A program made the position numbers and the translations under genes. The notes under the pieces were generated by a model, which was not told the DNA's origin, searched no databases, and saw only the letters and a program-made list of their open reading frames with translations. A stretch of DNA of 64,000 nucleotides, from positions 6,200,001-6,264,000 of the forward strand of contig OZ024761.1 of the NCBI GenBank assembly GCA_964016885.1. Direction: 5' to 3'. Shown here piece after piece: positions 5,477 to 64,000 of this stretch (positions within the stretch are counted from its first letter, which is position 1; each line of letters starts with the position of its first letter). This stretch comes from Eledone cirrhosa (Eukaryota).

Positions 5477-5535
5477 GCTGTTATATATATTTCGGTGATA
5501 ACCATTATACAACCGCTATGACCTCATCAGACAGC
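5477..5535 (-). ncRNA. type I hammerhead ribozyme
   Basis: gctgt-CTGATGA-ggtcatagcggtt/aatggttatcacc-GAAA-tatata-TA-acagc: stems I and II pair, palindromic stem III. Confidence 0.75.
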
Positions 5536-26090: not shown

Positions 26091-26148
<58 letters not shown>

Positions 26149-26149
26149 T

Positions 26150-26202
26150 GAGATTCTACAGGACTAGAACTGTTTCATTCTTTAGAAATCATCAGGAATC
26201 TC
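26150..26202 (-). ncRNA. type I hammerhead ribozyme with perfect 7-bp stem I
   Basis: gagattc-CTGATGA-tttctaaagaat-GAAA-cag ttctagtc ctg-TA-gaatctc. Confidence 0.8.
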
Positions 26203-26326
26203 TGATGATTTCTTTAGAAATCATCAGGATTCCTGATGATTTTTTCATCTATATTAAACTTTTATACTCTGCAATGTATTGAGTACCTTACTTACTGTGG
26301 TTACCTCCGATTCAACCCGGAATAAC

Positions 26327-26391
<65 letters not shown>

Positions 26392-26649
26392 ATATGTAGT
26401 TTCCTGAGTTTGTTGGGGTGGGGTAAGATAAAGTTGGTTAAAAAGGTTCTCAATACGTTGGTAGAGTACAGGCATCTTTATCATATATAGAAATGACTTC
26501 TACAGGACTAGACCTGTTTCGTATGAAATTATCAGATAATTTCATAAGGATGAAACCGTTCTAGTGCTGTAGTCATTTCTATATATAATAAATATATAGA
26601 ATTAAAAAATGCGATGTAGTTTTAGATGTTAAAGTCCTTTATTGATAAG

Positions 26650-30265: not shown

Positions 30266-30383
30266 TAAAAGAGAAAACACAGGTAAGCATTAATAGAAGG
30301 ATTTTATCCAGGTATTTATGACCGACGAACTGGATAACAAAAAGCAATTTTATGCTTCCCTAACTATATATATATATATATAT

Positions 30384-30443
30384 TAGGTCTTCTAAATGTT
30401 TATTATAAACATACAGAATATTTTCGAATATTCTATGTCTATA

Positions 30444-30450
<7 letters not shown>
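30384..30450 (-). mobile_element. dispersed fragment of the 310-bp tandem unit
   Basis: reverse complement of ~62088-62156 (gaatatagacatagaatattcgaaaatattctgtatgtttataataaacatt..gaagacctaat). Confidence 0.85.
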
Positions 30451-30475
<25 letters not shown>

Positions 30476-55994: not shown

Positions 55995-56512
<518 letters not shown>

Positions 56513-60253: not shown

Positions 60254-60389
60254 GGCACTCACACAAATATATATACATATATATACATATATACAATACA
60301 TACATACATATATATATATATATAATAAAAAATTGAACAGGGACAGAACAGAGAGGCAGTACGACAAATGTTTATTAGATTCACGCTCC

Positions 60390-61915: not shown

Positions 61916-61976
61916 TATTTTATCTGACGAAAGCGTACCAAAATACTGGTACCCTTGAAATATGTATAATAAAATA
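61916..61976 (+). ncRNA. type I hammerhead ribozyme
   Basis: tattttat-CTGACGA-aagcgtacca/tggtaccctt-GAAA-tatgta-TA-ataaaata. Confidence 0.78.
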
Positions 61977-62007
61977 AATATGGTTTTATAAAGATATTTT
62001 CCATTTA

Positions 62008-62056
<49 letters not shown>

Positions 62057-62061
<5 letters not shown>

Positions 62062-63916
62062 ATAAATGCTCTGAAATAGCGATATATATGTGAATATAGA
62101 CATAGAATATTCGAAAATATTCTGTATGTTTATAATAAACATTTTGAAGACCTAATCGCTATAGAATAGAATACGTCACGTATTAAAATTAGATTCTCGA
62201 TAAAAGCAAGGGAAGTAATCTACGCGTTTCATTCTAGTTAGAAATCATCAGGACTACATATCCAGTGCTTTTATCGAGAATGACACAGCTAGAGACTTAT
62301 AGAATACTTAGCTGTGTACAGGAACTGGTTTGAAAGAGCGGTTGCCGGTCCGGCAGAAATTAGAAATTGGAATAAATGCTCTGAAATAGCGATATATATG
62401 TGAATATAGACATAGAATATTCGAAAATATTCTGTATGTTTATAATAAACATTTTGAAGACCTAATCGCTATAGAATAGAATACGTCACGTATTAAAATT
62501 AGATTCTCGATAAAAGCAAGGGAAGTAATCTACGCGTTTCATTCTAGTTAGAAATCATCAGGACTACATATCCAGTGCTTTTATCGAGAATGACACAGCT
62601 AGAGACTTATAGAATACTTAGCTGTGTACAGGAACTGGTTTGAAAGAGCGGTTGCCGGTCCGGCAGAAATTAGAAATTGGAATAAATGCTCTGAAATAGC
62701 GATATATATGTGAATATAGACATAGAATATTCGAAAATATTCTGTATGTTTATAATAAACATTTTGAAGACCTAATCGCTATAGAATAGAATACGTCACG
62801 TATTAAAATTAGATTCTCGATAAAAGCAAGGGAAGTAATCTACGCGTTTCATTCTAGTTAGAAATCATCAGGACTACATATCCAGTGCTTTTATCGAGAA
62901 TGACACAGCTAGAGACTTATAGAATACTTAGCTGTGTACAGGAACTGGTTTGAAAGAGCGGTTGCCGGTCCGGCAGAAATTAGAAATTGGAATAAATGCT
63001 CTGAAATAGCGATATATATGTGAATATAGACATAGAATATTCGAAAATATTCTGTATGTTTATAATAAACATTTTGAAGACCTAATCGCTATAGAATAGA
63101 ATACGTCACGTATTAAAATTAGATTCTCGATAAAAGCAAGGGAAGTAATCTACGCGTTTCATTCTAGTTAGAAATCATCAGGACTACATATTCAGTGCTT
63201 TTATCGAGAATGACACAGCTAGAGACTTATAGAATACTTAGCTGTGTACAGGAACTGGTTTGAAAGAGCGGTTGCCGGTCCGGCAGAAATTAGAAATTGG
63301 AATAAATGCTCTGAAATAGCGATATATATGTGAATATAGACATAGAATATTCGAAAATATTCTGTATGTTTATAATAAACATTTTGAAGACCTAATCGCT
63401 ATAGAATAGAATACGTCACGTATTAAAATTAGATTCTCGATAAAAGCAAGGGAAGTAATCTACGCGTTTCATTCTAGTTAGAAATCATCAGGACTACATA
63501 TCCAGTGCTTTTATCGAGAATGACACAGCTAGAGACTTATAGAATACTTAGCTGTGTACAGGAACTGGTTTGAAAGAGCGGTTGCCGGTCCGGCAGAAAT
63601 TAGAAATTGGAATAAATGCTCTGAAATAGCGATATATATGTGAATATAGACATAGAATATTCGAAAATATTCTGTATGTTTATAATAAACATTTTGAAGA
63701 CCTAATCGCTATAGAATAGAATACGTCACGTATTAAAATTAGATTCTCGATAAAAGCAAGGGAAGTAATCTACGCGTTTCATTCTAGTTAGAAATCATCA
63801 GGACTACATATCCAGTGCTTTTATCGAGAATGACACAGCTAGAGACTTATAGAATACTTAGCTGTGTACAGGAACTGGTTTGAAAGAGCGGTTGCCGGTC
63901 CGGCAGAAATTAGAAA
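62057..63916 (-). mobile_element. tandem array of six 310-bp HHR-containing units (retrozyme-like)
   Basis: units start at 62057, 62367, 62677, 62987, 63297 and 63607; only one substitution noticed (63192); no ORF. Confidence 0.9.
62215..62257 (-). ncRNA. minimal type I hammerhead ribozyme, repeated every 310 bp (62525, 62835, 63145, 63455, 63765)
   Basis: gtagtc-CTGATGA-t ttcta ac tagaa t-GAAA-cgcg-TA-gattac; flanked by the 16-bp inverted repeat attctcgataaaagca (62193-62208) / tgcttttatcgagaat (62266-62281). Confidence 0.85.
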
Positions 63917-63921
63917 TTGGA

Positions 63922-64000
63922 AATTTCTAATTTCTGCCGGACCGGCAACCGCTCTTTCAAACCAGTTCCTGTACACAGCTAAGTATTCTATAAGTCTCTA
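63922..64000 (+). repeat. inverted copy of the 310-bp unit (runs off the window)
   Basis: perfect reverse complement of 63840-63918 about a 3-nt loop near 63920. Confidence 0.92.

Follow-up and report, generated by a model that had tools for sequence, protein, structure and literature searches.

Two-armed insertions of a hammerhead-bearing tandem repeat carry the asymmetric ends of Penelope-like elements, a probable record of copying around an RNA circle

How does a short non-coding repeat with a putative ribozyme in every unit come to stand as a clean tandem array beside a (TA)n tract, and what kind of enzyme copied it there? This question is raised by a locus at the end of a 64,000-nucleotide stretch of Eledone cirrhosa DNA (G000:C22:6200001-6264000, hereafter the window) from a 3.0-Gb, microsatellite-rich genome. 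A preliminary description of the window had reported six nearly identical 310-bp units, interpreted them as a recent retrozyme insertion copied around an RNA circle, probably by a reverse transcriptase (RT) of a Penelope-like element (PLE), and placed the end of the array at 63916. The array and its position directly after the (TA)n tract were recovered as described, with period-310 identity extending over 6.02 units; five of the six units are identical and unit 4 differs by one C>T substitution. However, the array does not end at 63916 but inverts at 63922 and continues on the opposite strand as a second arm of 7.90 units. The six-unit array is only the left arm of a head-to-head, two-armed insertion (Table 1), in which the hammerhead-sense RNA of both arms is directed away from the centre. 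The two ends differ, the left one carrying a 35-nt tail and the far end of the right arm being tail-less, at phase 34 of the unit, and passing into (TA)n; on this right flank only ~15 nt of TA precede (CA)n and unrelated DNA. The dispersed fragment that had been taken as a sign of mobility is a genuine member of the family.

Table 1. Coordinates of the features at the studied locus and of the second family copy in the window
Feature	Position in window	Strand	Details
One-armed, 5'-truncated family copy	30382..30456	+	Tail-less end, between TA tracts; 97.3% identity over 75 nt
(TA)n target tract, left of insertion	62015..62055	.	From the sequence; would hide any target duplication
Left arm, 6.02 tandem units	62056..63922	-	Hammerhead-sense RNA outward (leftward); outer end at phase 309, tail-bearing
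35-nt tail, phases 309-33	62056..62090	-	At left end, absent from far end; would lie between two reverse-transcription start sites
Hairpin	62105..62122	-	Just 5' of tail-less start site; predicted by folding; compensatory change in sister family
Perfect 16-bp helix extending stem I	62193..62281	-	62193-62208 with 62266-62281; every 310 bp
Type I hammerhead, unit 1 (predicted)	62215..62257	-	Descriptor scan; repeats at +310, +620, +930, +1240 and +1550
Sole substitution in both arms	63192	+	1 in about 4,310 bp
Inversion junction	63918..63927	.	Left arm stops at phase 5, right arm begins at phase 1; overlap of 1 nt (63922)
Right arm start, 7.90 units in all	63922..64000	+	RNA sense +; reaches G000:C22:6266369, outside the window

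Using our own descriptor, we detected a type I hammerhead on the minus strand of all six left-arm units, with the parts named in the preliminary description and with the same predicted cut, between 62221 and 62220 in unit 1. In that unit, stem I (GUAGUC/GAUUAC) pairs 62257-62252 with 62220-62215, the CUGAUGA and GAAA boxes occupy 62251-62245 and 62230-62227, and the GUA triplet lies at 62223-62221. Stem II has 4 bp and loop II 4 nt, stem III is the palindromic ACGCGU, and a UAU bulge follows stem I, which the perfect 16-bp helix extends as had been claimed. The earlier label of a minimal hammerhead, by contrast, had to be abandoned. The minimal hammerhead (min-HHR) of PMC4209133 has a long helix II (7-8 bp), a short helix I and no helix III, and is ruled out for the unit by a helix I of 6 bp, a helix II of 4 bp and the palindromic helix III; by the definitions of that paper, the predicted hammerhead is of the canonical metazoan type. 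A U.U pair stands in place of G10.1-C11.1, as it also does in one axolotl class (PMC7229834). The unit has a folding z-score of -5.08, and none of 100 shuffles folds as well; ViennaRNA assigns stem II a probability of only about 0.1, and in its prediction the active fold of the monomer is 6.9 kcal/mol less stable than the minimum. The Rfam comparison proposed in the preliminary description gave no hammerhead match in the window at the gathering score and none at E<=10 on 62000-62700. In a published series, just one of nine dimers tested was cleaved (Li et al., bioRxiv 10.64898/2026.07.22.740005).

The predicted ribozyme was further assessed by comparison with a sister family, whose units of 314-315 bp have about 70% identity with the 310-bp unit. 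The sister family keeps the invariant hammerhead core, its helix III is nearly palindromic, and the hairpin next to the start site, a candidate protein-recognition site, is likewise retained. Compensatory pairs were observed in its stem I (C-G to U-A, U-A to C-G, and G.U to G-C) as well as in stem II and the long helix, the equivalent of which comprises 13 bp with compensatory pairs in three of five sister units and 7 bp in the other two. Helix III was misaligned between the families by MAFFT, and its pairs were compared by motif position instead. As a comparison of two lineages (five sister units) rather than a covariation statistic, these changes support the hammerhead predicted in the unit. 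Within the young family, fixed core alleles were found only at the variable position N7; none of the 30 fixed alleles falls in the 12 invariant core positions, where about 1.2 would be expected, a deficit that alone is not significant. The window also contains a weak match to the sister family (60265-60317, 78% over 54 nt) inside a TA-rich tract.

The copy-number check suggested in the preliminary description revealed 16,564 exact genome-wide matches to a 27-mer of the unit and 1,043 exact tail-bearing ends, corresponding to at least 1,043 insertions. The tail-less pattern had 1,196 matches, some of them internal variant units. With about nine units per locus, the 16,564 units give an estimate of about 1,700-1,900 young copies. 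We sampled 80 stretches (L031-L110), namely the 20 best BLAST matches, the 40 tail ends that come first on C1, and 20 tail-less ends that were unpaired with the sampled tail ends, and added 11 further loci chosen without the end pattern, for a total of 91. The second element of L092 (identical with L064), the first element of L086 (identical with L085), a 122-nt inner piece of L051, and a sister fragment in L056 were dropped before counting. Two arms were present at 77 of the 91 loci (70/80 and 7/11); the other 14 were one-armed or their end was not reached, including 10 of the 80 stretches, two of which run off the stretch and one of which stops at an N gap. Arms had a mean length of 4.9 units and a median of about four turns, 126 of 140 exceeded one unit, and up to 27 turns were counted in two-armed loci. 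Very long arms occur at L087 (>30 units), L063 (27), and L045 (>16). In agreement with the earlier view of the units as non-coding, no ORF of at least 150 aa was found inside the arms of 60 loci, and no ORF with an RT plus GIY-YIG was found in any arm or centre examined. ORFs beside the arrays were either non-LTR-type RT/endonuclease fragments or had no Pfam hit, with zero GIY-YIG hits.

Several loci showed individual features. A linked variant pair in 6 of 31 units of L087 suggests later local amplification. L086 holds two members of the family at a distance of 4 kb (L085/L086, the C1 96179929 region), and in the flanks of L033, L040, and L044 several insertions adjoin one common unrelated repeat end; this clustering and the common flanking end are consistent with reuse of TA tracts. 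At L093, 272 bp of unrelated GC-rich sequence (1448-1719) sit exactly at the inter-arm junction, possibly as captured RNA or a later insertion. The retrozyme insertion at L036 has on either side a hammerhead end (1618 and 8559) of an element of a Hydra-like PLE family and is probably nested in it.

The ends of the insertions follow a strict rule: each of the 77 two-armed loci has one tail-bearing and one tail-less end. At the 70 two-armed loci of the sampled stretches, one end lies at phase 302-7 and the other at phase 25-40. The rule was observed in 16/16 loci picked by BLAST, 37/37 picked by tail end, and 17/17 picked by tail-less end, as well as in all seven two-armed loci among those chosen without the end pattern; the tail-less end of L301 was read by eye through variant bases. 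The tail-less copy starts at phase 34 in 49 of the 70 loci, although the preceding ATATATAT of the unit would pair better, and ATATATAT before phase 34 is kept at 15/70 tail-less ends, suggesting that the start is set by a protein rather than by homology. The targets flanking the 70 loci are (TA)n or AT-rich. Target duplications, which are legible only outside pure (TA)n such as that of the studied locus, measure 11-15 bp at nine loci (L044, L058, L070, L084, L097, L105, L109, L302, and L306), with an AT-rich target other than (TA)n at L306. The PLE-like tail, the inverted arm, the target duplications, and the (TA)n targets bear out the earlier reading of the array as a retrozyme, a recent insertion, and a member of a mobile family served by a PLE-type enzyme, and we are highly confident that the family is a retrozyme moved by PLE machinery.

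Based on these results, we propose that a dimer of an RT/GIY-YIG PLE protein used a single RNA circle as the template for cDNA primed from both nicked strands of the target, which is the probable origin of the two-armed insertions. By likeness to tested retrozymes, array transcripts would self-cleave as dimeric hammerheads, and the 310-nt monomer would be ligated to a circle. The enzyme would then nick (TA)n on both strands, 11-15 bp apart as the target duplications suggest, and cDNA synthesis would start 130 nt downstream of the cut at one 3' end and 165 nt downstream at the other, these sites being placed on either side of the tail by the end rule. Each RT would circle the template a variable number of times, and the two cDNA 3' ends would finally be joined by 0-5 nt of microhomology or by short, often locally templated inserts, as the junctions indicate. 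The coupling of the two ends, together with the haplotypes shared between arms, is the expected trace of one dimer priming both strands on one RNA, and the multi-turn arms are the expected trace of a circle. In vitro, a purified PLE cuts and extends both target strands and starts at two internal sites bracketing a 30-40-nt tail; the enzyme is predicted to be a dimer, and the main text leaves unstated whether, within a single event, each strand starts from a site of its own (PMC11167929). The origin of the inverted copy, the one-sided tail, and the (TA)n targeting has been described as undefined (PMC8557442). The model as a whole, which reasons from the observed anatomy, counts, and conservation to cleavage, a circle, an enzyme, and an order of steps, appears to us reasonably probable.

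The nature of the template was assessed by comparing sequence variants within and between arms. The 70 two-armed loci comprise 32 haplotypes, with a chance match of 0.076 between two loci. Both arms share a haplotype at 68 of the 70, once apparent discordances at L050, L062, and L078, judged by arm lengths to be end-gap artefacts, are discounted; the exceptions are L074, where the arms differ, and L083, which is mixed in both. Half of the fixed alleles (15/30) are confined to a single locus, and a 2-bp deletion is present in all 22 units of L064. Variants private to a unit are rare, with 106 in 238,773 bp, and minor alleles are seldom common to more than one locus (4/110), which indicates that the family is young and that its copying passes through a bottleneck of one unit. 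The inner ends of the arms are scattered over the unit (chi-square p = 0.09), with 2 of 138 at the cut (phase 160-166) versus 3.1 expected, and the cut site is copied without scars (two minor alleles nearby in 764 passes). The haplotypes, the inner ends, and the scar-free cut fit a closed circle better than a linear RNA that had been cleaved or a template re-entered by jumps, although long uncut transcripts would be compatible with them too. Haplotypes and inner ends thus agree with the rolling copying put forward in the preliminary description, although the circle itself is deduced from such patterns. A one-base insertion fixed at four loci was considered as a ligation scar and rejected, as it is part of a shared haplotype and its position is within stem I, 2 nt 3' of the cut. 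The unit is also covered by contigs of four sequencing runs. Three of them (X2, X3, and X4, with three other organism codes) contain it as one 340-nt contig with one haplotype at low depth, and these three single contigs run end-to-start, as a tandem array or a circle would.

The same double priming by a PLE might have taken place with no circle, on a long uncut linear read-through transcript of a large source array, on two RNAs of one source, or on a monomer with template jumps. Uncleaved RNA was the main substrate of the PLE studied in vitro (PMC11167929) and would also leave inner ends off the cut site, and arrays of more than 30 units exist (L087). A haplotype common to both arms could stem from two RNAs of one source locus. 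In L083 and L105, two variants occur at equal unit index in both arms, and mixed alleles were observed at L048, L074, L038, and L045. In L041, the units nearest the centre carry, in both arms, a second haplotype that was seen at L065, L079, and L085, which suggests a template switch or ectopic conversion. Overall, the variant patterns of L083, L105, L048, L074, and L041 suggest multimeric templates or later gene conversion. On the other hand, the new alleles fixed in all units of both arms require a one-unit bottleneck, and few unit-private variants recur at other loci (4/110). Moreover, linear copying is unable to raise the unit number, the junction scars that template jumps would leave were not seen at the cut site, and the retention of the ribozyme across about 30% divergence argues that cleavage matters. 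We consider double priming on a template other than a circle unlikely.

Inter-arm junctions were scored against locus-specific haplotype references (n = 69, with L109 left out). Of these, 56 are blunt or overlapping and 13 contain inserts, many of which resemble nearby sequence. An overlap of at least 2 nt was observed in 28 of the 56 versus 18% by chance (p = 6e-8), and two loci (L056 and L109) join inside the self-complementary 16-bp helix. The latter fact, the microhomology, and the identical haplotypes of the arms can also be explained if the first strand folded back and primed its own copying, a route put forward for PLE insertions of head-to-head type (PMC3846280), with the tail difference arising from endonuclease resolution (PMC8557442). 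If the centre has had no later deletion, fold-back demands that one arm fit inside the other in phase. However, 11 of the 70 loci fall in a length window that leaves neither arm contained in its partner, so that neither could have been copied from it (permutation mean 6.4, range 2-11), whereas fold-back predicts none. The tail arm exceeds its partner in length at exactly 35 of the 70 loci, so that the fold-back copy would have to stop at a site unused by the first strand. Finally, mirrored unit-level variants amount to only 2 of 72 checkable, a count that includes a few alignment artefacts and in which most variants may post-date the insertion. Self-priming of the second arm thus appears rather improbable, and priming of both strands by a dimer on one circle remains our preferred reading.

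We then considered the PLEs of this genome as possible partners of the family. Neptune-like PLEs with RT and GIY-YIG ORFs and a CxxxxCxxC linker are present, one of which (L141) hits both Pfam families; Hydra-like ORFs (L221/L222) were assigned by motifs alone, with no Pfam hits. The Hydra-like family has 7,717 exact hammerhead matches in the genome, and a stretch of its hammerhead has 26 of 28 nt in common with the 310-bp unit, which in sequence terms is the best apparent link of the unit to a PLE family. Its tail is about 66 nt long, its start sites lie elsewhere, and its 3' end is unlike that of the unit. A long/short end asymmetry was found in all 22 pairs of this ORF-bearing family measured at both ends, among 23 listed. 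Of the 15 two-armed loci of the sister family, 13 have the two-end pattern, the other two have a truncated second end, and two-tail loci number zero. The PLE with a terminal repeat matching the unit that the preliminary description had anticipated was not among the stretches fetched, nor was any autonomous PLE with a matching 3' end. This search covered a minor fraction of the 10,597 and 56,122 first-look candidates. A matching partner was not found in the GIY-YIG family scan (65 of 150 matches examined), the Hydra-like protein query (30 of 150 loci), the sister-family query (30 of 46 matches), or the search with a tail-motif variant pattern (30 of 182), and the four routes gave only older non-coding relatives. 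The older relatives of the family show 70-77% identity.

Other PLE copies and ribozyme motifs were noted along the way. The Neptune-like copies L154 and L146 are head-to-head insertions too; L154 ends 602 and 542 nt past the stop codon, its short end lying about 126 nt past the hammerhead cut, near the 130 nt of the 310-bp unit. The window holds ten type I hammerhead-like motifs of other families, at 5530(-), 20413(-), 21520(-), 24954(+), 26010(-), 26195(-), 37820(-), 42294(+), 56361(+), and 61924(+). The type at 56361 occurs within the 3' region of a Neptune-like PLE family, and the motif at 61924 adjoins the TA tract of the array. Tiny remnants of Hydra-like PLEs, some of them two-armed and consisting almost solely of the ribozyme and its tail, were seen at about 26140-26330 and as pairs near 26501/26571, 32792/32876, and 41784/41847.

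Long inverted arms of tandem units with target duplications also resemble FB-type elements, and the insertions might belong to a fold-back DNA transposon or MITE carrying the hammerhead as a passenger. However, the two ends are never equivalent (77/77), the centre junction and the pair of arm lengths differ at every locus, so that there is no inherited internal structure, one-armed 5'-truncated copies exist, and the ORF-bearing PLEs of this genome show the same end asymmetry; this reading is largely refuted, and we assign it very little probability. Perfect inverted repeats are typical of fold-back reads as well, and at the studied locus a 33-nt contig (depth 45) overlaps 63920-63951 and no short-read contig bridges the junction by a 31-nt standard, but the unmirrored flanks, the unequal arms, the 35-nt end offset at 77 loci, their differing junctions and genuine target duplications, and the layout shared by older diverged families make an assembly or chimeric-read artefact scarcely credible.

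In LINE-1 twin priming, two target 3' ends prime on one RNA, which results in an inversion joined by microhomology. The insertions described here would share with it the double priming on one RNA and the microhomology-joined inversion, but they have fixed internal start sites 35 nt apart and no poly(A), both arms recopy one sequence, and the two-armed form is the rule (77/91) rather than a minority.

Non-LTR retrozymes are described as non-coding tandem units of 150-450 bp with a canonical type I hammerhead in each, a GC content below 50%, target duplications above 4 bp, a highly paired monomer, and co-occurrence with PLEs (PMC7229834; bioRxiv 10.64898/2026.07.22.740005). The present family, with its 310-bp units of 33.9% GC, a hammerhead per unit, dispersed copies, and duplications of 11-15 bp, agrees in sequence with a non-LTR retrozyme, the RNA properties of which (self-cleavage and a monomeric circle) it would share by likeness only. 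The retrozymes of these two sources form head-to-tail arrays, whereas the insertions here are two-armed, with a tail and fixed start sites. We found none of these three features in the retrozyme passages of the two main texts, where "inverted" occurs zero times in PMC7229834 and once in the preprint, in a reference title, and "tail" zero times in the preprint. According to a 2020 review (PMC7761336), retrozyme repeats have no motif identifying their mobiliser. Circle-templated synthesis of tandem cDNA by a PLE has already been proposed for them on the basis of co-occurrence and pLTR homology (PMC7229834; the same preprint).

The EN+ PLEs, for their part, are described with a head-to-head inverted, 5'-truncated copy, a 30-40-nt tail confined to one end, insertion into (TA)n, target duplications of about 10 bp, and a hammerhead upstream of two internal RT start sites (Poseidon_Ac, PMC11167929; PMC8557442; PMC3846280). 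Their counterparts here are a head-to-head arm at 77/91 loci, a 35-nt one-end tail at 77/77, and (TA)n or AT-rich targets. In contrast, EN+ PLEs carry an ORF, while each arm here is free of ORFs and consists of several whole turns of the 310-nt unit; and where the main texts of the PLE papers use "often" or "optional", the coupling of one tail-bearing with one tail-less end was counted here without exception. Among the non-autonomous Chlamys PLEs, considered with MRC1 in PMC8557442, most Chlamys elements have no canonical hammerhead, whereas the unit has one, and they generally match an autonomous family at the 3' end, whereas no such match was found here in the stretches fetched. In the openly available main texts searched, two-armed retrozymes with fixed asymmetric PLE ends are undescribed. 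We concluded that the two-armed layout with fixed asymmetric PLE ends in a non-coding retrozyme appears to be new, while the element belongs to the already known kind of non-LTR retrozymes.

The family ties together two questions of the literature, namely by what route PLEs come to be inserted in tandem and in inverted orientation with a tail on one side only (PMC8557442) and what enzyme mobilises retrozymes in animals, from circles or not (PMC7229834, PMC7761336), as it displays the full PLE end signature with no long sequence common to any PLE found. Chances seem to us evenly balanced that the insertions record a general EN+ PLE reaction, with a dimer on one circle, both strands primed, and both cDNAs rolling; if so, a single reaction, common to EN+ PLEs, would account for inverted pseudo-LTRs, the one-sided tail, and the tandem arrays of retrozymes. 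Where retrozymes have been catalogued by scanning for tandem repeats, the two arms of one insertion may have been entered as two elements. The young copies act as single-molecule records, the end rule predicts precisely what the in vitro PLE assay already in use should show, and a circle of 310 nt would be an easy substrate for it. The chief value of the family lies in testing the PLE mechanism.
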